From Bacilli bacterium (GTDB lineage Bacteria > Bacillota_I > Bacilli_A > RF39 > UBA660), in assembly GCA_037071015.1 (NCBI GenBank), contig JBAMOY010000001.1, forward strand, positions 1,072,847 to 1,136,846: a DNA stretch of 64,000 nucleotides, in the 5' to 3' direction. The position numbers and the translations under genes are program-made. This document shows, in pieces, positions 16,856-57,199 of this stretch. The notes beneath the pieces were generated by a model, which was given only the letters and a program-made list of their open reading frames with translations, did not search any database and had not been told where the DNA came from. Each line of letters starts with the position of its first letter. The first letter of the stretch is position 1.

Positions 16856-17743
16856 TTATTCCTTTACATTTATTATTTCTAATATACGATTTAAATCGGC
16901 GTCATTGGTAAAACCAATTATAATCTTATTATCCTTAATTTTAATCCTTGAATCAAATTTGTTTTCTAAAAGTTCTTCAACATATTTGTAATTATTATCT
17001 GTTTGTTTACGCTCAATTTTAATTTTACGATCCAACATAGGATTATCGCTAGCCATTTCCTCTAAACGACGAACACTAAAATTTTCATCAACTATTTTTT
17101 TAGCTAAATCGATAATTTTATCGTCGCCATCTAACTTACTAAGAACACGCGCATGCCCCATTGATATTTGTTTTTTGTTTACCATTTCTTGAACTTGCAT
17201 TGGCAAGCGAAGTAAACCTAACATATTAGTTATATGACTACGACTCTTACCCACTTTTAATGCTAATTCCTCTTGTGTTAAATTTAGATTATTTAACAAA
17301 TTTTGATAAGCTTGAGCTTCCTCAATAGCCGATAGGTTTTCACGTTGTAAATTTTCTAACAATGCTATCTCCATCATTTGTTCATCGGTAAAGTCTCGAA
17401 CAATAGCCGGTATTGATGTTAACCCAGCTAACTTACTGGCACGATAGCGTCGTTCTCCAGCAATTATCTCATATCCTTTTATACTTCTTTTAACAATAAT
17501 CGGTTGAAAAACACCATGTTCTTTAATAGATGACGCTAACTCTTTTAAGCTTTCATCAGTAAAAACAGTTCGTGGTTGATAAGGATTAGGACGTAATTGT
17601 TCTAACGGTATATCAATAATTTCTTCAGCACTAGTTGTTTCATAAATATTCTTTTCAATACTATTGATATCTATATTATCACTATTAAAGAGTTCTTCTA
17701 AGCCTCTACCTAACGCTCTTTTTTTATTTTCCATTTCTTTCAA
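16856..17743 (-). CDS. parB: chromosome partitioning protein ParB/Spo0J
   Basis: 295 aa. GERRYRAS ParB box and HTH. Downstream of parA. Confidence 0.92.
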   Translation of the reverse strand: MKEMENKKRALGRGLEELFNSDNIDINSIEKNIYETTSAEEIIDIPLEQLRPNPYQPRTVFTDESLKELASSIKEHGVFQPIIVKRSIKGYEIIAGERRYRASKLAGLTSIPAIVRDFTDEQMMEIALLENLQRENLSAIEEAQAYQNLLNNLNLTQEELALKVGKSRSHITNMLGLLRLPMQVQEMVNKKQISMGHARVLSKLDGDDKIIDLAKKIVDENFSVRRLEEMASDNPMLDRKIKIERKQTDNNYKYVEELLENKFDSRIKIKDNKIIIGFTNDADLNRILEIINVKE

Positions 17744-18509
17744 TCACTTCCTTTGCTAAATTTAAATATGCTTCTGTTCCACGACTCTGTGGATCATATG
17801 CAATAATTGGCTTCCCATGACTTGGAGCTTCAGATAATCTAACTAGACGTGGAATTATAGTATCATATACACGTTCTTTGAAATAACTCTTAATATCTTC
17901 TACTACTTCTAAACCTAAATTAGTGCGATTATCTAGCATTGTAAGTAAAACACCCTCAATATCTAATTGGGGATTTAAGTTCTTTTGTGCTAACATAATT
18001 GTGTTAAGTAATTGCATAATTCCTTCCAAAGCAAAGAACTCACATTGAACAGGAATAATAACTGAATCTGCGGCTGTCAAAGCATTAGTAGTTAGAATTC
18101 CTAAGGAAGGCGGACAATCAATAATTATATAGTCAAAAACATCCTTAATTGTATCTAGATTCTTTTTTAACTGACCACCCTTTGAAAAGCCCGGACGATT
18201 TCTTCCCATGTCAATTAATTCAATATCGGCACCAGCTAAATTAATAGTTGCTGGAATAACATAAAGATTTTTGAAATTAGTTTTAATAATAACCTCCGAT
18301 AGAATTGCTCTATCAGTTAATAAATCATATATGCTCTTACCAATATCACCCTTATTTATTCCAACACCCGTAGTAGTATTGCCTTGTGGGTCTAAATCAA
18401 TCAATAAAACCTTCTTCTTTAAAACACCTAAAGAGGCTGCCAAATTTATACTAGAAGTCGTTTTACCAACTCCTCCTTTTTGATTAACTAAAGCAATGAT
18501 TTTACCCAT
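17724..18509 (-). CDS. parA: chromosome partitioning ATPase ParA/Soj
   Basis: Start at MGKIIALVNQKGGVGKTT (deviant Walker A). The track ORF has 15 extra N-terminal residues. Confidence 0.9.
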   Translation of the reverse strand: MGKIIALVNQKGGVGKTTSSINLAASLGVLKKKVLLIDLDPQGNTTTGVGINKGDIGKSIYDLLTDRAILSEVIIKTNFKNLYVIPATINLAGADIELIDMGRNRPGFSKGGQLKKNLDTIKDVFDYIIIDCPPSLGILTTNALTAADSVIIPVQCEFFALEGIMQLLNTIMLAQKNLNPQLDIEGVLLTMLDNRTNLGLEVVEDIKSYFKERVYDTIIPRLVRLSEAPSHGKPIIAYDPQSRGTEAYLNLAKEVIERNGK

Positions 18510-18600
18510 ACTATCACCATTTTCTATATAGAATACTATAATATATTTTAACATATTATAGTAAATAAAGCTATTATATTTTTGAGTTTTATTTTTCTAT

Positions 18601-25375: not shown

Positions 25376-26935
25376 TTAATTAGTGTGTTCTTGGAAATAT
25401 TTTTCTTTGTCTATTCGTAAAAATATTGGTTTTGGATCCTTTAATTTTATGCCAAAATCAAAACCATCAAAATTTTTCAATGAATCATAAAATATATTTT
25501 CTGTATTTAATTGATTAAAAATTTCTTTAGCAGTGTCAGGTAAAAAAGCCTGCAATAATACTGCTCCATGGCGAATTGCTTCTAATAAATTATATAAAAC
25601 AGTTGCCAAACGATCTCTCTTATCTGGATCTTTAGCTAAAGTCCAAGGCATTGTTTCATCAATATACTTATTACTCCTTCTAAAAATCTCAAAAATATCA
25701 TCAATTGCATCAGCAATTCTAATATCATTCATCTTTTCATCTACTCTTTTTGGTATAGAAAGGACTAAATCAATTAATTCTTGATCTACATCCTCATTAA
25801 CATGAGGATTATTAACAATACCATCAAAATATTTATGTGACATACTTATCGTTCTATTAACTAAATTGCCTAAAATATTAGCTAAATCGGTATTTATTCT
25901 TTCAATTAGCAATTCTCTTGTAAAAGTTCCATCACTACCATATGGTATTTCATGTAAAAAATAATATCGTACTGCATCAACACCAAAATCAGCCACTAAA
26001 TCATCAGCATACACAATATTTCCTTTAGATTTACTCATTTTATCTGAACCAAACAACACCCATGGATGGCCAAATATCTGCTTTGGCAACTCTAAATTTA
26101 ATGCTTTTAAAATTATTGGCCAATATATCGTATGAAACCTCAAAATATCTTTTCCAATTAAATGTAAATCAGCTGGCCAATATTTTTTAAAATTATCATC
26201 ACTATTGCCATCAACATCATAACCTAAAAAAGTAATATAATTGCTTAGAGCATCAATCCAAACATATATTACATGATCCTGGTCAAAGGTAACTGGGACA
26301 CCCCATTTAAATGACGTTCTAGATACACAAAGATCCTGTAGCCCTGGTTTTATAAAGTTATTCATAATTTCATTTTTTCTACTTTCAGGAATAATAAAAT
26401 CTGGATGTGTTTCTATATAAGCTTCAAGCCATTTAGAATAATTAGATAGTTTTAAAAAATATGCCTCTTCTCGAGCCTTTTTAACTTCCCTACCACAATC
26501 AGGACATTTTCCATCTATTAATTGTGATTCAGTAAAGAATGATTCACATGGAGTACAATATAAGCCTTCGTATTGTCCCTTATATATATCACCCTGTTGA
26601 TATAATTTTTCAAAAATTTTAGAAACTTGTTCCATATGTGAACAATTGGTTGTTCGTACAAATTTATCATAACTAGTATTCATTACATCCCAAATGCGTC
26701 GAACTTCAAGTGCTATCTCATCAACATACTCTTGAGGCTGCTTATTAACTTCGATGGCTTTTTCTTCGATTTTTTGTCCATGTTCATCAGTACCTGTTTG
26801 AAAATATACATCATAACCCAATAACCTTTTATAACGAGCAATAGCATCAGCCAAAACTATTTCATAAGTATTTCCAATATGAGGCTTAGCTGAAGTATAA
26901 GCTATAGCTGTTGAAATATAATATTTTTCTTTCAT
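25376..26935 (-). CDS. metG: methionine--tRNA ligase
   Basis: Start at MKEKYYISTAIAYTSAKPHIGN (HIGH motif) with a strong AAGGAGG RBS. KMSKS present. The track ORF runs 15 codons further into dut. Confidence 0.93.
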   Translation of the reverse strand: MKEKYYISTAIAYTSAKPHIGNTYEIVLADAIARYKRLLGYDVYFQTGTDEHGQKIEEKAIEVNKQPQEYVDEIALEVRRIWDVMNTSYDKFVRTTNCSHMEQVSKIFEKLYQQGDIYKGQYEGLYCTPCESFFTESQLIDGKCPDCGREVKKAREEAYFLKLSNYSKWLEAYIETHPDFIIPESRKNEIMNNFIKPGLQDLCVSRTSFKWGVPVTFDQDHVIYVWIDALSNYITFLGYDVDGNSDDNFKKYWPADLHLIGKDILRFHTIYWPIILKALNLELPKQIFGHPWVLFGSDKMSKSKGNIVYADDLVADFGVDAVRYYFLHEIPYGSDGTFTRELLIERINTDLANILGNLVNRTISMSHKYFDGIVNNPHVNEDVDQELIDLVLSIPKRVDEKMNDIRIADAIDDIFEIFRRSNKYIDETMPWTLAKDPDKRDRLATVLYNLLEAIRHGAVLLQAFLPDTAKEIFNQLNTENIFYDSLKNFDGFDFGIKLKDPKPIFLRIDKEKYFQEHTN

Positions 26936-26936
26936 A

Positions 26937-27422
26937 TTATCCCTCCTTATTTGTCGAACCAATTCCACCAGTTCGTTCATTTAATATTTTCTCTTCATTA
27001 TCGATAGTATAATATTTCATAAAAATCCCCTGGGCAATGGCTTCACCTTCTTTTACATTATAATTAGTTAAACCATGATTTTGCAAAGATATCCATATAT
27101 GACCCTCATTTGAAGGATTATCACTATAATCATAATCAATAATACCAACTTGATTACACATTCTAACGTTATATTTAAATCCCATACTACTACGAACTGT
27201 TATCATCAGAAATTCATCACTATTCATATATACTTTAACACCAGTTGGAATTTTCTTCACTTCACCAGGTTTTAAAACTAGAGATTTGATGGCAAAAAAA
27301 TCATACCCAGCACTATTTTTCGTACTTCGTTTTGGCAACATATAGTTATCATAAATATTCCTACTATCAATGATATCTTTTTTAAACTGTGCAAAACTAA
27401 TTTTTTCAAATTTTCTCATCAT
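26937..27422 (-). CDS. dut: dUTP diphosphatase (YncF/YosS-like)
   Basis: 161 aa. AGYDF motif, GIIDYDY and C-terminal RTGGIGST matching B. subtilis YncF RGGLGSTG. Confidence 0.8.
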   Translation of the reverse strand: MMRKFEKISFAQFKKDIIDSRNIYDNYMLPKRSTKNSAGYDFFAIKSLVLKPGEVKKIPTGVKVYMNSDEFLMITVRSSMGFKYNVRMCNQVGIIDYDYSDNPSNEGHIWISLQNHGLTNYNVKEGEAIAQGIFMKYYTIDNEEKILNERTGGIGSTNKEG

Positions 27423-27434
27423 ATCACCTCATTG

Positions 27435-27655
27435 ATAAAAATAAAAAATCACATCCTTAATAAGGACGTGATTAACGTGGTACCACCTTAATTCATGTAT
27501 TTTTCAATACAACTCAAATATTTAACGCATATATACGTCATAATCTACATATCGATTATGCAATTCCAGAACCATTCCGTATAACTATCTTTATCCATTC
27601 GCACCAACCATGGATTCTCTTAAAAGCATTGTTAAATTTCTTTCCTTCTAAATCT
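27435..27655 (-). promoter_or_regulatory. T-box riboswitch leader upstream of dut-metG (probable Met specificity)
   Basis: Minus strand has AAUUAAGGUGGUACCACG (T-box consensus is AAUUAGGGUGGUACCGCG). It is followed by a terminator AAUCACGUCCUUAUUAAGGAUGUGAUUUUUUAUUUUU whose 5' arm can alternatively pair with the T-box. AUG triplets lie in a candidate stem-I loop (GAAUGGA). Upstream promoter GTTATAAT. Confidence 0.6.
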
Positions 27656-27684
27656 TTAATGATATGATTATAACATATTAATAA

Positions 27685-28218
27685 CTAATCTTCAAGATAT
27701 TTAGATAGAAATTGCGCAGCTATTTGCACAATTCGTTCATCAATTTCCATTGTTTTCTCTTCCTCTGAAAAAATTATAACCAATCCTAAAGCATCCCCGT
27801 TAGCAACTATAGTATTAATAGTATATGTACATTCTATCCCATCACCCTCAATAATGCTTAATTCTTTTTGATGCTTTTCTAATATATTTTCACGGCGTTG
27901 AATATAATCATCAAGTTGTTTGCTTATTGGCTGGTTAATGAATTGTTTTTTCTTTTCACCAGTAAAAGCAATGATATTATCAGTATCAGTTATAACTACA
28001 TTTTTTTTAATAAAAGCATTTATCGAATCTGTAAATGATTGCGCAAAATCAGTAATCTTATTCATTAATGAAAATTTCTGTAAAACTATACGATTTTCAT
28101 TTTCAATAAATATTTCTAAATTCTCTCCGTCATGAATTCTCAGACTTTTTCTAATTTCTTTTGGTATAACTATTCTCCCAAGATCATCAATTCGTCTAAT
28201 TACACCGGTAGATTTCAT
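27685..28218 (-). CDS. spoVT: stage V sporulation regulator SpoVT (AbrB-N plus GAF-like domain)
   Basis: 177 aa. The N-terminal swapped-hairpin MKSTGVIRRIDDLGRIVIPKEIR is AbrB-like. Length and position downstream of mfd match B. subtilis spoVT. Confidence 0.8.
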   Translation of the reverse strand: MKSTGVIRRIDDLGRIVIPKEIRKSLRIHDGENLEIFIENENRIVLQKFSLMNKITDFAQSFTDSINAFIKKNVVITDTDNIIAFTGEKKKQFINQPISKQLDDYIQRRENILEKHQKELSIIEGDGIECTYTINTIVANGDALGLVIIFSEEEKTMEIDERIVQIAAQFLSKYLED

Positions 28219-42037: not shown

Positions 42038-45083
<3,046 letters not shown>

Positions 45084-45215
45084 AAAATCATCCTTTTTTT
45101 CATTTTTACACCTCATTTTTAGCTTTTTAGTATTTTGTGTATACCTATACCTATGAATATATTATATCATAATTTTAAACAAAAAAATATCTAAAATAGA
45201 TATTTGATACCATTT

Positions 45216-45662
45216 TTAGATATTTTTTCTTTGTCTTAATTTAGATTCTAACATTGTAGCTCGTAAAATTTGATTTTCTAATGATTTATAAGATATGTCT
45301 AAATCAACATTTATACCATTCTTAAAATATATTGAAGATATATTCTCCTTTTTAGAATATTTTTCAATATTATTTAAAGAAATCCAATAGCAATTATCAA
45401 ATCTTGGCGAACTTGTTGGAAAAAAAATAATTTCTCTACTTTCTTCTATAATTATTGGTGATTTATAATTAAATCCAACTAAGTTTTTAGTTCCTGCACA
45501 TCTTCCACTATAAGAGCTACCAAAAAATTTACAACTATGATCAATTATATCAGTAGTTGATTCATTAATTATAAAATTATTATTTTCTTCAATAACTTTA
45601 GAACATTTTTTTGAAATAGGAATGATTGCTAATGTTGCATCATTAATCTCATAAGTATCCAT
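45216..45662 (-). CDS. comK: ComK-family competence transcription factor homolog (short form)
   Basis: 148 aa. Segments match B. subtilis ComK: EINDATLAIIP/EVNGATIAVLP, IIDHSCKFFGSSYSGRCAGT/IVDRSCRFFGSSYAGRKAGT, IFFPTSSP/LFPTLSS, CYWIS/CGWIS, ISYKSLENQILRATMLESK/ISYNSFENQVYRTAWLRTK. Lacks about 45 C-terminal residues of ComK. Confidence 0.75.
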   Translation of the reverse strand: MDTYEINDATLAIIPISKKCSKVIEENNNFIINESTTDIIDHSCKFFGSSYSGRCAGTKNLVGFNYKSPIIIEESREIIFFPTSSPRFDNCYWISLNNIEKYSKKENISSIYFKNGINVDLDISYKSLENQILRATMLESKLRQRKNI

Positions 45663-45788
45663 TTTAACACCTCCTTCTATAAGATATTTATAACAATAAA
45701 TATCAAATTTCCTTTCTTATACTATTATTTTTAGTCGAATTTTATCTTTTTTTGTCGAAAATAATAAAAAAATAGCAAAAAATGCTAT

Positions 45789-46910
45789 TTAATAAGTTCT
45801 AATTGGCAATATTAATTGAATTAAACTATTATCTTCAATATTTTTTATAATAATAGGTTTTACTTCACCGTTAAATAATAATTCTATTTCTTCACTATTT
45901 ATTGCTTTTAAGGCATCCATCATATATTTAGAAGAAAAAGCTATTTTTAAATTTTCCTCTATTTCTTTAATTAAAGGTACTACTTCTTTTACATTTCCTA
46001 TTTCTGGGATATTTGATGACAAAATAACTTTATTATATTCACTTTCTAACTTTATTGTATTCTTTTCTATTTCATTGGTCAATAATGATGCTCTATCAAT
46101 TGCAGCATATAAATCGTTAAATTTAACTCTCATTGCGTATTTAAATTCATTTGGAATTAATTTCGATGTATCAGGATATGTACCATTTATAATTTTTGAC
46201 ATCATAATAATAGAATTAAATTTAAAAATGACTTTATTATTAAAAATATGTAATTCGATATTTTCTTCGTCATTATCTAATAATTTAATCAATTCATTTA
46301 TATTTCTTGTTGGAATGATAATATCAATTTCTTCATTATTATCATTTTTAATTTCAATTGTTTTTTTAGCTAAACGGTAAGAGTCTGTAGCAGTACAATT
46401 TAATATATTTTTATTAATTTTTATATTTATTCCCGTTAAAACAGGTCGAGATTCTTGTGTAGAAGTTGCAAAAACTGTTTGATTTATTATTGTCTTAAAA
46501 ATTTGTTGATTTATTATAATTGGATTTTTATTATCATTTAATTCTAAATCAGGAAAATCTTCTACTTTATTACAATTTAAATTAAATGAAGAATTATTAG
46601 TAGTTATAAATAATTTTTCATTCATAATACACTCTATATTTACTATTTCATTAGGTAACTTTCTAATAATATCATAAATATATCTACCAGAAACTACTAC
46701 TTGTCCACATTCCTCAATATCATCAATATCTTTTTTATCTATAAAAGTTTTGATAGCAATTTCATTATCCGTACTCAACAAGTATAAACCATTTTCTTCT
46801 AATTCAAATTTTATACAATTTAATATAGGAATAATATTTTTATTAGATATTCCTCTTATAACATAATTTAAATGTTCCATTATTATTTTTTGTTTTATTT
46901 TTAATTTCAT
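45789..46910 (-). CDS. dnaN: DNA polymerase III beta sliding clamp
   Basis: Start MKLKIKQKII with a GAAAAGGAG RBS. The track has 30 extra AT-rich codons overlapping the DnaA-box region. Confidence 0.9.
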   Translation of the reverse strand: MKLKIKQKIIMEHLNYVIRGISNKNIIPILNCIKFELEENGLYLLSTDNEIAIKTFIDKKDIDDIEECGQVVVSGRYIYDIIRKLPNEIVNIECIMNEKLFITTNNSSFNLNCNKVEDFPDLELNDNKNPIIINQQIFKTIINQTVFATSTQESRPVLTGINIKINKNILNCTATDSYRLAKKTIEIKNDNNEEIDIIIPTRNINELIKLLDNDEENIELHIFNNKVIFKFNSIIMMSKIINGTYPDTSKLIPNEFKYAMRVKFNDLYAAIDRASLLTNEIEKNTIKLESEYNKVILSSNIPEIGNVKEVVPLIKEIEENLKIAFSSKYMMDALKAINSEEIELLFNGEVKPIIIKNIEDNSLIQLILPIRTY

Positions 46911-47042
46911 ATTAATCTCCTTTTCTATATTTTTATTATTATAGATGTTAATTGTGTGGAAAAAGTTAAAAATTATATAAAAATAATTGAAAATATACAT
47001 TTTTTATTGTGGAAAAAAGTGTGATAATAATATTTTTTTCCA
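46911..47042. other. oriC part II: DnaA boxes and AT-rich region between dnaA and dnaN
   Basis: TGTGGAAAA (= TTTTCCACA) at 46965-46973 and 47009-47017, TTTTCCACT at 47035-47043, set in an AT-rich tract. Confidence 0.6.
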
Positions 47043-48398
47043 CTATTTTATTTTAGCAATTAATTTATCCACTTCATTTTTAAATTCTTCATTAGTATTT
47101 ATTTCGTGAGTTATTTTATCTACAGAGTGCATAACTGTCGTATGATCCTTTCCACCAAATTCAATGCCTATTTTAGGTAAAGATTCTTTTAAATACACTC
47201 GGCAAATATACATTGCAATTTGTCTTGGTAAAGAAATCTTTGAAACTCTTCTTTTACTTTTTAAGTCATCAACAGTTATATTATAATTAATAGCAATTAT
47301 TTGTTGAACTTGCTCAATTTTATTTTTTGAAATAATACTTTTTGTGAAATAATCCTTTAAAGCTTCAACAGCTAAATTTAAAGTAATTTCCGAACCATTC
47401 ATCATAGTAGCATAAGCAAATACTCTAGTGATAGCACCTTCTAACTTTCTAATATCATTTGTGCAATTACTAGCTATAAATTCTTTAACATCTTGTGGAA
47501 ATTTATCTCCTAAAACATTTCCTTCTATTTTTTTATTTATTATATTAATTCTTAACTCAAAATCAGGTGGTAAAATATCAATAGTTAATCCCCAATTAAA
47601 ACGTGTTTGAAGTCTTTCTTCTAATTTATTTAAATCATCAGGTGACCGGTCGGATGAAATAATAATCTGTTTATTATTGTTATATAATTCATTGAAAGTA
47701 TTAAAAAATTCTTGTTGTGCACTATTAGCAATTTGTAAGTATTGAATATCATCGATCATTAATACATCAATATTTCGATATTTATTTTTAAAATTTCTTA
47801 CTTCATCTATATTATCATTATCTTTATTTCGACGATATAATTCAATAAAATCATTAACAAATTGTTCGCTAGTAACATAAAGGACATTTTTTTTACTATT
47901 TTTAACTATATAATTTCCAATTGCATGCATTAAATGAGTTTTACCTAGCCCACTACTACTGTATAAAAATAGTGGATTATACATAACTCCTGGTTTTTCT
48001 GCTACTGCTAAAGCTGTGGCTCTTGCAAATTTATTACTTTCTCCAACAATGAAATTATCAAATGTATAAAGACTATTTAAATTTGAATTAAACATATAAT
48101 TATTAGGAACCCCTAAAATATTTGTATCAATTTCAATATTTTTTTCTATTTCATCATTTGTATAATATTCAAATTTAAAATTAGAACCTGTAATTTCTGT
48201 AAAAATTTCTTCAATAATTTCATTATAGTTTTCTTTTAAATGTTTTTTATGTACATGCATTGGAACTTCTACTTTAGCACAATTATCTGTTAATTCAAAT
48301 AATTTCGTATCTATAAACCATGCTTCATATAACATTGGAGCAATATTTTCTTTTATTTTATTTAAAAATTTTTCCCATATTGTATTTAAATCCACCAT
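47043..48398 (-). CDS. dnaA: chromosomal replication initiator DnaA
   Basis: 451 aa. GLGKTHLMHAIG Walker A, AAA+ fold, C-terminal DNA-binding domain. GGGGGTGA RBS. Confidence 0.95.
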   Translation of the reverse strand: MVDLNTIWEKFLNKIKENIAPMLYEAWFIDTKLFELTDNCAKVEVPMHVHKKHLKENYNEIIEEIFTEITGSNFKFEYYTNDEIEKNIEIDTNILGVPNNYMFNSNLNSLYTFDNFIVGESNKFARATALAVAEKPGVMYNPLFLYSSSGLGKTHLMHAIGNYIVKNSKKNVLYVTSEQFVNDFIELYRRNKDNDNIDEVRNFKNKYRNIDVLMIDDIQYLQIANSAQQEFFNTFNELYNNNKQIIISSDRSPDDLNKLEERLQTRFNWGLTIDILPPDFELRINIINKKIEGNVLGDKFPQDVKEFIASNCTNDIRKLEGAITRVFAYATMMNGSEITLNLAVEALKDYFTKSIISKNKIEQVQQIIAINYNITVDDLKSKRRVSKISLPRQIAMYICRVYLKESLPKIGIEFGGKDHTTVMHSVDKITHEINTNEEFKNEVDKLIAKIK

Positions 48399-48475
48399 TT
48401 CACCCCCAAATAAGCGATATTACAACAATATTCTACAATAAAAAGGTAAAAAATGCTAGAAAAAAGCTTAAAAAT

Positions 48476-48661
48476 GTGGAAAAAATAAATATTTGTTTTT
48501 TTCCACACATAAATTTTAATAAAAAATAAGAATATTTATAGTTTTCAACATAACTTGTGGAAAAAATTTTAAATATGTGAATTAAAATTTATTAATTATC
48601 CACAATTATTGTGGATAAACTAAAAAGTATATAAAAATAAAGATAAAATAATAGTGGAAAA
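48476..48661. other. oriC part I: DnaA-box cluster upstream of dnaA
   Basis: Boxes at 48476-48484, 48497-48505 and 48557-48565 (TTTTCCACA type). Perfect head-to-head pair TTATCCACAATTATTGTGGATAA at 48596-48619. AGTGGAAAA at 48653-48661. Confidence 0.75.
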
Positions 48662-55725: not shown

Positions 55726-55776
55726 GGAAATAATTTGGGAAATAATTTAAAAAGCATTGAAATATTTCCCAAATGA
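55723..55776. promoter_or_regulatory. Noc-binding-site-like half-site repeats upstream of the noc-like gene
   Basis: TTTGGGAAATAA appears twice as 12-bp direct repeats (55723, 55735), plus an inverted ATATTTCCCAAAT at 55761-55773. These are the two halves of the known Noc-binding palindrome ATTTCCC-GGGAAAT. Confidence 0.35.
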
Positions 55777-55813
55777 TAGTAAAATATACATAAAGAATAA
55801 AGAGGTGATGTTA

Positions 55814-57199
55814 ATGTATAAGGATAATCAACAAGTTATTAATATAAATCTTAATGATATTTTGCCGAACCGGTTTCAACCACGTTTAAAGTTTAATGAA
55901 GACGAAATAATAAATTTATCAGAATCAATAAAAGAACACGGTGTGATTCAACCAATCGTTGTGCGTAAATTAGGTGATCGGTATGAAATAATTGCTGGTG
56001 AGCGAAGAACTAAAGCGAGTATTATGGCAGGAAAAACTACTATTCCCGCTATTGTTGTTGACTTAAATGACAACGAAAGTGCTGAAGTTGCACTAATTGA
56101 GAATGTTCAACGTCAAGATTTAACCTCGATTGAAGAGGCCATTTCTTATCGCAAAATATTAGATATGGGATATTTGACTCAATCTCAATTAGCCGAAAAA
56201 GTGGGTAAAAAACAATCAACGATTGCTAATAAATTACGCTTGTTAACATTACCTAAAAGCGTTCAAGATGCTTTATTAGAAACTAAAATATCTGAAAGGC
56301 ATGCTCGTTCATTATTGAGATTAGATGATAAGCAAAAACAAGAAGAATTATTAGATAGAATTATAAAAGAACGTTTAACAGTTCGAAGAACAGATCAAGA
56401 AATAGATAAAATTATTAATTTAGATAAGATGGAGATATTAGATATACCGCTAGTCCCAGAAACAGTAAAGAAAGAAGATGATATCGTGAATGATAAAAGG
56501 TTTGATTTTGATGATATGATAATACCAACAACAAGTATTATTGATGGTAATTTAAATATTAATAAAGCGGATAATATAACTGAAGTAACTAATTTTAATA
56601 ATTCTGAAAATATTTCTAATCCAGGATTTATGGATATCGATAAAATAGCAGATCAAGCCCAGGATATTAAAAAGGATAATGTATCATTTGATTTACAACC
56701 TGATCAAATAATTCCTTCAATTCCTGAAGAACCAAAACCGGAAGAGATTCCAATGCCTAAATTTTTTAATATTTTAAATGAAACAAAACCGGTAGAAAAA
56801 TCCGAAACAGATGAAAAATCAATAAATAATGTATCTCCTTTAAACGGATTAGATATATTTAACGTTCAGAATACACAAACAGAACCAAAAACAATACCTG
56901 AACCAGATAATATATCTGTTTCTACTGTTACAGAACAACAGCCACCTGAAATCAAAATAGATAATGCCGTAATTTCTAATGATTTAGATGATATTGCCAT
57001 AATAGATGATAACACTTTTGTCAGCGAAGAAGTTCCTCAACAAGAAACGAAAATTGAAACTCATAAGCCTCTTTTAAAAGATGCTATTGCTGAAGTAAGA
57101 AATTTATCTCATAAATTAGAGAACATGGGATATATTATTGATATTGAAGAGATAGATTTTGAAGATTTATATCAAATTATTTTTAAGATTAAAAAATAA
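55814..57199 (+). CDS. noc: ParB-family nucleoid-occlusion-like protein (Noc-like) with long acidic C-terminal extension
   Basis: Start MYKDNQQ with an AAGAGGTGA RBS (alternative ATG at 55808). LPNRFQPR, IIAGERRTKAS (ParB box) and HTH. Position after rsmG as B. subtilis noc. About 260-residue D/E/P/N-rich tail after residue 200. Confidence 0.8.
   Translation: MYKDNQQVININLNDILPNRFQPRLKFNEDEIINLSESIKEHGVIQPIVVRKLGDRYEIIAGERRTKASIMAGKTTIPAIVVDLNDNESAEVALIENVQRQDLTSIEEAISYRKILDMGYLTQSQLAEKVGKKQSTIANKLRLLTLPKSVQDALLETKISERHARSLLRLDDKQKQEELLDRIIKERLTVRRTDQEIDKIINLDKMEILDIPLVPETVKKEDDIVNDKRFDFDDMIIPTTSIIDGNLNINKADNITEVTNFNNSENISNPGFMDIDKIADQAQDIKKDNVSFDLQPDQIIPSIPEEPKPEEIPMPKFFNILNETKPVEKSETDEKSINNVSPLNGLDIFNVQNTQTEPKTIPEPDNISVSTVTEQQPPEIKIDNAVISNDLDDIAIIDDNTFVSEEVPQQETKIETHKPLLKDAIAEVRNLSHKLENMGYIIDIEEIDFEDLYQIIFKIKK

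Follow-up and report, generated by a model that had tools for sequence, protein, structure and literature searches.

A core-only ComK in an origin-proximal slot conserved among uncultured Bacilli, with predicted Spo0A sites in its promoter

The competence regulator ComK of Bacillus and Staphylococcus relies on a disordered tail, on proteolysis by MecA/ClpCP and on cooperative autoregulation, and to our knowledge the protein has been studied almost only in these two genera. Here we describe a ComK-family gene at 45216..45662 on the minus strand of a 64,000-nucleotide stretch of DNA from a Bacilli bacterium of the order RF39 (hereafter the window, meaning the whole stretch analysed; positions 1,072,847 to 1,136,846 of contig JBAMOY010000001.1, assembly GCA_037071015.1), which encodes the ComK core without this tail. 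In Bacillus subtilis, residues 158-192 of ComK form an intrinsically disordered region (IDR) whose removal keeps dimer binding within a box and abolishes cooperativity between boxes, and earlier in vivo work had found the deletion to be inactive (10.64898/2026.03.17.710445). The sequence recognised by MecA/ClpCP, FMLYPK..., is placed in the tail by PMC8138137, citing Prepiak and Dubnau 2007, and B. subtilis ComK lacking 25 residues is described as binding DNA without activating transcription (Susanna 2006 as cited in PMC3128618). Shorter forms also occur naturally: ComK2 of B. cereus (BC5250) is missing 22 C-terminal residues and lowers comG expression (PMC3128618), and in Staphylococcus aureus, when oxygen is strongly limiting, competence is repressed by ComK2, which has no counterpart of an additional helix at the C-terminus of ComK1 (PMC12491500). 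In B. subtilis, phosphorylated Spo0A (Spo0A~P) binds directly to the promoter of comK, where three of its sites activate and two repress (PMC3297582). Spo0A of both Bacillus and Clostridioides recognises with high affinity a 7-bp core, TGTCGAA, flanked by A/T (PMC3485338); active Spo0A~P is a dimer for which two boxes 3 bp apart make up the footprinted site, and it also binds at B. subtilis oriC, upstream of dnaA (PMC2731898).

Our analyses indicate that the window gene is intact, conserved and separately transcribed, and that its origin-proximal slot is kept across a large radiation of uncultured gut Bacilli, the RF39 genus CAG-594 among them. On balance we think that it is probably a Spo0A-controlled, natural core-only ComK, that is, a folded DNA-binding core without the disordered tail.

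The open reading frame (ORF) begins with ATG and encodes 148 residues. It matches the Pfam ComK profile PF06338 over positions 2-151 of 152 (E value 5.2e-46; score 156.6 bits, cutoff 22.3), and a BLASTP comparison with B. subtilis ComK, for which the reference was an exact match to COMK_BACSU (192 residues), gave 40% identity with an E value of 4e-40, ORF residues 1-145 aligning with ComK residues 9-157. A first-pass annotation of this DNA, made from the letters alone, had already placed the ORF in the ComK family on the basis of four conserved blocks; the full-length profile match and the identity to COMK_BACSU bear this out, and all four blocks (FFGSSYxGRxAGT, FPTxS, CxWIS and ISYxSxENQ) were found in the ORF. 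The name is not new either, the ComK label for this protein being already in public databases, where an identical NCBI entry, MEI3530591.1, encoded on contigs that reach 1.2 Mb, is titled 'MAG: competence protein ComK [Bacilli bacterium]'. Searches with the ORF protein matched no NCBIfam model, and a sequence search of the PDB returned chance-level matches only, with no solved ComK structure. Pfam, BLASTP, an AlphaFold2 model and the NCBI identity together underlie our description of the coding sequence as that of a core-only ComK-family transcription factor.

The same annotation had described the protein as lacking 45 or so residues of the ComK C-terminus and as possibly a truncated regulator. 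A C-terminal tail is indeed absent, although the missing part is smaller than that, amounting to some 32-35 residues (158/161-192 of B. subtilis ComK), together with 8 residues at the N-terminus. Specifically, the protein has 3 residues beyond the one that pairs with residue 157 of B. subtilis ComK, and in the alignment to COMK_BACSU the tail carrying the MecA/ClpCP signal FMLYPK... is not present in the window protein. To judge from this alignment, the protein stops at the point where B. subtilis ComK becomes disordered, which would make it a natural counterpart of the engineered tail-less ComK. This does not make it a broken gene. The nearest 120 of 1197 homologs are all between 142 and 179 residues long, and when the homologs are grouped into 1146 clusters at 50% identity two length classes appear, one of ~145-157 residues and one, the Bacillus type, of ~185-206 residues, with the long forms mostly grouping together among the cluster representatives. 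All relatives stop a few residues past the helix ENQILRxxxLESxLRxRK. The AlphaFold2 model of the window protein (predicted local distance difference test score, pLDDT, 96.8; predicted template modelling score, pTM, 0.90) contains 9 strands and 3 helices, of which the last runs from residue 125 to residue 147, and is predicted to be a complete, compact ComK core fold. In Foldseek comparisons the predicted core was weakly but consistently similar to LytTR DNA-binding domains (AgrA and pneumococcal ComE). A length of ~148-155 residues is the standard of a large subfamily, and the gene is intact. We note that a pseudogene or gene fragment is ruled out by the conservation, the constant length, the strong ribosome-binding site (RBS) and the confidently predicted complete fold. 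Conservation of the short form across hundreds of clusters implies that it is functional where it naturally occurs. The suggestion of the first-pass annotation that oligomerisation may be altered in the short protein would fit the engineered tail-less ComK, for which, as far as 10.64898/2026.03.17.710445 and PMC3128618 describe it, the within-box dimer is kept while inter-box cooperativity and activity are lost.

The position of the gene, between dnaN and recF with no yaaA-like gene in the slot, was correctly given by the first-pass annotation and is borne out by gene order, the slot holding the comK-like gene without a yaaA-like or remB-like gene. Its description as an unusual insertion of a ComK paralog is not supported by the comparison with other genomes. 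A species-level scan with one genome per species yielded 10 related loci of 48-66% identity, all from metagenome-assembled genomes (MAGs) of uncultured Bacilli, and the order dnaA-dnaN-comK-recF-gyrB-gyrA is present in all 10 and in one complete genome of 1.49 Mb (11/11; loci L001-L011). A metagenome scan with a small, narrow alignment gave 80 loci of 51-83% identity; dnaN and/or recF directly adjoin comK in 69 of these, with the full order wherever the contig suffices. In the remaining 11 (L029, L036, L042, L044, L045, L052, L056, L057, L064, L065 and L067) comK lies between ligA and gatCAB. A neighbour-joining tree rooted on B. subtilis ComK places these 11 genes in one clade nested among the origin-located genes, a nesting that leads us to regard the origin position as ancestral for the radiation. 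The ligA-gatCAB sublineage is monophyletic, takes in 'Clostridium sp. CAG:1193' and has the same short comK with the same promoter layout. Taken together, the dnaN-recF slot is apparently the conserved, ancestral position of comK in a large radiation of uncultured Bacilli, one sublineage of which appears to have relocated the gene, and the genes at the two positions behave as orthologs, not paralogs. Consistent with this, no second ComK was seen in the sequence covered, which falls short of whole genomes, and no long-form ComK was found among the close homologs of the lineage, so that the short form appears to be the sole ComK of the lineage. One origin-type protein is identical to that annotated in 'Clostridium sp. 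CAG:594' / Candidatus Aphodocola, and CAG:594 corresponds to GTDB genus CAG-594, family CAG-433, order RF39 (PMC8035907). Our literature search found no paper linking ComK to dnaN/recF synteny or to RF39.

The most informative feature of the locus, which the first-pass annotation missed, is an array of tandem Spo0A boxes in the promoter region. The distal site, TTCGACA (45753..45759, minus strand), is the exact reverse complement of the 0A-box core TGTCGAA and lies 20 bp upstream of a proximal site, TTCGACT (45733..45739, minus strand), which differs from that reverse complement by one mismatch. Relatives have 2-4 direct repeats of TTTCGACA upstream of comK. When the window and L001-L011 are taken together and 150 bp per locus are counted as upstream sequence, exact TTCGACA occurs 18 times in 1.8 kb of upstream DNA versus 19 times in the other 147 kb, a density ~78-fold greater upstream, and the upstream copies all have one orientation and are 10 or 20 bp apart. 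No other tandem array occurs in the 64-kb window, both strands considered, and in 100 second-order Markov simulations not a single one arose. Across 78 unique upstream regions the core-to-core distance was 10 bp in 47 instances, 20 bp in 32 and 30 bp in 6, with little else. The boxes are also in register with a putative promoter: the proximal box is followed after 11 nt by TA[TG]A[AG][TG] in 31 of the 78 regions, whereas each of the other spacings from 5 to 19 accounts for 0-3. This -10-like hexamer is most often TATAAG at the 11-bp spacing, as it is in the window (45716..45721, minus strand, 11 nt downstream of the proximal box). Loci without consensus boxes, for example L032-L041 and L082-L091, have units of a degenerate kind at the same phasing, either NNNNGACA or CTACA, and the relocated ligA-gatC clade retains the box and promoter layout. 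DnaA boxes were considered as the identity of the repeats and ruled out: the DnaA boxes of this organism read TT(A/T)TCCACA whereas the repeats consistently read CGACA, and because the local DnaA boxes are canonical the repeats must be a distinct motif. We regard the repeats as likely to be the sites of a predicted Spo0A-controlled promoter. Spore formation is predicted for RF39 (PMC10868615), and sporulation genes lie nearby, spoVT at 27685-28218 (minus strand) in the window and spoIIR ~5 kb past its right edge (L016, 20628-21152); both occur in a genome of apparently only ~1.2-1.5 Mb.

Two further occurrences of 0A-box-like sequence were noticed in relatives. In L026, L027, L030, L031, L040, L048 and L060 a pair of 0A-box cores in inverted orientation (TTCGACA-N5-7-TGTCGAA) forms the palindrome of the leader, which lies ~30-45 nt before the comK-like start codon and downstream of the -10-like hexamer and could be an additional, possibly repressing, Spo0A site. 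Just upstream of dnaA, tandem 0A-box-like pairs of the form TTCAACA-N3-TTCGACA are present in L006 (3094-3110), L007 (3085-3101) and L008 (3073-3089), recalling the known binding of Spo0A at B. subtilis oriC.

The gene appears to be transcribed as a unit of its own. A terminator-like hairpin found by folding, ATAGCA-TTTTT-TGCTAT with a T-run (45765..45788, minus strand), directly follows the dnaN stop codon, and relatives similarly have hairpin and T-run sequences after dnaN. A second, AAATATCTA-TTT-TAGATATTT with a T-run (45178..45205, minus strand), follows the comK-like stop codon, and a hairpin with a T-run is found within 70 nt of the comK stop codon (<=70 nt) in 69 of 73 unique related loci. 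Downstream of this, in the region 45139-45169 (minus strand), recF has an extended -10 promoter that reads TGATATAAT in the window and TGnTATAAT in nearly all relatives (L001-L097). With terminators on both sides and a separate promoter for recF, the comK-like gene is an insulated single-gene unit. Within its leader a conserved element, AAAGGAAAT (45707..45715, minus strand), lies just 3' of the -10-like hexamer and takes the form (A/G)GAGGAA(A/T)T in many loci; an inverted repeat, GATATTTAT-TGT-ATAAATATC (45683..45704, minus strand), is folded by ViennaRNA into a 9-bp hairpin between the hexamer and the RBS; and the RBS itself, read from the sequence as AGGAGGTG (45668..45675, minus strand), is 5 nt upstream of the start codon. 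This order of AGGAAAT element, inverted repeat or hairpin and RBS is that of the leader generally: a GGAGG comparable to the window RBS precedes the comK start codon in related loci, and a hairpin occupies the same place in many relatives, its stem sequences differing by lineage with the pairing kept, and folding z scores fall below -1.5 (z < -1.5) in about a third of leaders. An Rfam search of 45000-45850 found no match. A sigma-H-type promoter (AGGAAAT plus a downstream GAAT, in L023, L043, L060, L061, L066 and L070) was also considered and rejected, the mean of a scored scan being equal to that of shuffled sequences. As for recF, its promoter in the window is followed 5-8 nt on by a conserved element, GTATAGGTATAC, at or near the transcript start; elsewhere the element reads GTGTATAGGAGTAC, GGTACAGGTGTAC or GGTAGTGGGATACC and resembles a short GTA/TAC stem around a GG-rich, Shine-Dalgarno-like loop. 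Many relatives also have in common the motif GGCCAT(T)TAAA, ~20 nt upstream of the RBS of recF.

The hallmark of ComK-controlled promoters in B. subtilis, the pair of AT-boxes, is not found here. We defined a K-box as a pair of AAAA-N5-TTTT boxes with a spacing of 8, 18 or 31 bp. Allowing up to 2 mismatches (<=2), none is present in the 160 bp upstream of the comK-like gene, a region that includes 45663-45788, where the first-pass annotation had proposed that AT-box pairs be sought, and there are none near dnaN or recF. The whole window contains no perfect K-box and 2 with one mismatch, both intragenic, versus 0.7 expected, a count not above chance. An apparent excess of 2-mismatch K-boxes in the upstream regions of relatives was measured against mononucleotide shuffles only and probably reflects the A/T runs of terminators.

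From these observations we propose the following mechanism. Phosphorylated Spo0A would bind the phased tandem 0A boxes that overlap the promoter and control transcription directly, tying production of the regulator to entry into stationary phase or sporulation. By extension from published B. subtilis work, the core-only protein would occupy single DNA sites as a dimer and would escape recognition by MecA/ClpCP through the FMLYPK signal, and without inter-box cooperativity there would be no all-or-none switch of the B. subtilis type. With neither the tail signal nor inter-box cooperativity, we suggest, control would therefore have shifted from proteolysis and autoregulation to the promoter itself. 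Presumably the genes that it acts on are those of the 'K-state', for DNA uptake and recombination, at other places in the genome.

Several points weigh against this interpretation. About a third of the related loci have degenerate boxes only. If TATAAG is the -10 element, the boxes would centre near -27, -37 and -47, with another promoter type possible at individual loci; the proximal box then falls within the promoter spacer (about -30 to -24), a position that would suit an activator replacing a missing -35 element and a repressor equally well. None of the late competence genes (comG, comE, comF, dprA and ssbB) was found in the window or in its ~10 kb flanks. A tblastn search with Spo0A of all fetched loci (743 kb, the organism's own genome being represented by the window plus ~10 kb flanks) gave no match, a negative that says little because spo0A is not expected near the origin. 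Finally, to judge by its counterparts, an activator role for a core-only protein would need explaining: tail-less ComK is transcriptionally inactive in B. subtilis, and ComK2, which is core-only in both S. aureus and B. cereus, is at least partly a repressor.

This last point raises the possibility that the window protein is mainly a repressor or modulator, like the shorter ComK2 proteins, and not an activator of competence, which we consider unlikely. The lowered comG expression caused by B. cereus ComK2 and the binding without activation reported for B. subtilis ComK minus 25 residues (both as given in PMC3128618), the repression of competence by S. aureus ComK2 (PMC12491500) and the presence in the predicted model of the same 3 helices and 9 strands as reported for ComK2 all speak for it. 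However, ComK2 proteins coexist with full-length ComK1, and no long form was found among the close homologs of this lineage; it would be odd if, in reduced genomes, the only ComK left were a repressor lacking an activator to work with, and the likeness to ComK2 considered here is one of length and described fold.

A second alternative concerns the TTCGACA repeats, which might be autoregulatory sites of the core-only ComK, or sites of some other regulator that binds direct repeats, with a DNA specificity unlike that for the B. subtilis AT-boxes. B. subtilis ComK does autoregulate its own promoter (PMC3297582), and since there is no canonical K-box in 45663-45788 any autoregulation here would use another motif. 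The repeats have also accompanied the gene to its second genomic location, and the LytTR domains that the predicted core weakly resembles in Foldseek are themselves binders of direct repeats. We nonetheless hold this to be quite improbable, as the repeated 7-mer is identical to the 0A-box core and, like Spo0A dimer sites, has A/T flanks and a spacing of 3 bp, similar tandem boxes stand just upstream of dnaA in L006-L008, where Spo0A binds in B. subtilis (PMC2731898), and the lineage carries sporulation genes.

It is highly improbable that the position is itself functional, with the protein acting on the neighbouring replication and repair genes or on oriC, or with origin dosage coupling its level to initiation, for although the oriC-adjoining position is strictly conserved over deep divergence and a link between Spo0A and oriC exists in B. 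subtilis (PMC2731898), terminators insulate the gene, recF is served separately by a strong extended -10 promoter, no K-boxes lie near dnaN or recF, and a whole clade moved the gene to ligA-gatCAB with the same promoter layout, which makes the origin position dispensable. Few gene blocks in bacteria resist rearrangement as strongly as dnaA-gyrA, which surrounds the gene in the other lineages, and a gene that has come to lie within such a block is therefore apt to remain.

Returning to Spo0A-controlled, core-only ComK as the reading we favour, a more ambitious version of it can be framed, to which we give little credence at present: that in RF39-like Bacilli with reduced genomes tail-less ComK would be a deterministic developmental regulator triggered by Spo0A, not a bistable switch, and that its Spo0A wiring and ancestral seat in the dnaA-gyrA block would tie a programme of DNA uptake, repair or chromosome state to sporulation entry and replication status. 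Were that so, the lineage would offer a natural test of whether the ComK tail is dispensable where no cooperative switch is needed.

The surroundings of the gene are those of a bacterial origin. In the ORF list and public gene calls, dnaA (47043-48398), dnaN (45789-47000 as an ORF of 403 residues, 373 in public records) and recF (43950-45116, 377 residues in public records) are all on the minus strand; gyrB and gyrA follow recF on the same strand, and rpmH, rnpA, yidC, jag and mnmE are on the plus strand. The sign of the GC (guanine-cytosine) skew changes near 48.5 kb, and canonical DnaA-box clusters are found at 46955-47124 and 48475-48618. The first-pass annotation was right that the comK-like gene is close to the origin, but in place of its single figure of 1.7 kb the distances to the two clusters are 1.3-2.9 kb. 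The 373-residue call for dnaN leaves a dnaA-dnaN spacer of ~130 bp (region 46910-47042) that contains DnaA-box-like sites (46955-47124), which fits a two-part origin. The origin block (43950-43963 and 45117-45215) is without the small B. subtilis genes yaaA/rlbA and yaaB/remB, and recF and gyrB overlap by 14 nt. Elsewhere in the window a T-box leader (105 bits; 27459-27659, minus strand) precedes a gene for dUTPase (26937-27422), which in turn overlaps metG (25376-26980); this arrangement suggests a T-box-controlled dut-metG unit. An unusually long protein with ParB_N and HTH_ParB domains (461-480 residues) is encoded beside gidB at 55757-57199 on the plus strand, and an ordinary parA/parB pair is also in the window, at 16856-18554.

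What these findings add to the existing annotation is the deep conservation of the dnaN-comK-recF order, the ending of the protein at the disordered-tail boundary and the phased consensus Spo0A boxes, and for none of these three points did we find a paper on this lineage. In this large group of gut Bacilli, which is very common but uncultured, all that is kept of ComK is its folded core, in a fixed origin-proximal seat and with apparent consensus Spo0A sites. If our favoured reading is true, RF39 and its relatives are candidates for natural DNA uptake, their ComK provides a natural counterpart to the engineered tail-less protein for studying DNA-mediated cooperativity, and the B. subtilis circuit understates both the age and the directness of the link between Spo0A and ComK.

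Among promoters with tandem 0A boxes, those of the abrB and spoIIG/spoIIE type and the A2c promoters of phages phi29 and Nf resemble the window and its relatives in having 7-bp TGTCGAA direct repeats with 3-bp spacers, and so a 10-bp phase, that overlap the core promoter; the sites in the window differ in being predicted, their box positions being set by the -10-like hexamer alone. The layout is also similar to that of the long-spacer promoters of spoIIG and spoIIE. Compared with its B. subtilis namesake, the window protein belongs to the same Pfam family, with 40% identity over the whole folded core and every conserved block, but has no equivalent of residues 158-192, which hold the MecA/ClpCP signal and are required for inter-box cooperativity and for activity, or of the first 8 residues. 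Its gene has a different genomic position and no K-box in its promoter. Both comK promoters have a connection to Spo0A, which is direct binding of Spo0A~P in B. subtilis (PMC3297582) and predicted 0A boxes in the window; the boxes in the window are tandem, phased and of consensus sequence, whereas the five B. subtilis sites are scattered and have 1-2 mismatches. The protein ends within 3 residues of the start of the deletion in engineered ComK-delta and the truncations of Susanna 2006 (157 versus IDR 158-192), yet the engineered protein is non-functional in B. subtilis and the short form of the window type is naturally conserved. ComK2 of S. aureus and B. cereus BC5250 is likewise naturally short at the C-terminus, and the S. 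aureus protein, compared here by description only, is reported to have the 3 helices and 9 strands counted in our model; ComK2 is, however, a second copy beside a full-length ComK1 and acts as a modulator or repressor, whereas the window short form appears to be the sole ComK. We conclude that the locus encodes a variant of a known regulator and not a new kind of system: the ordinary ComK of a large uncultured lineage.

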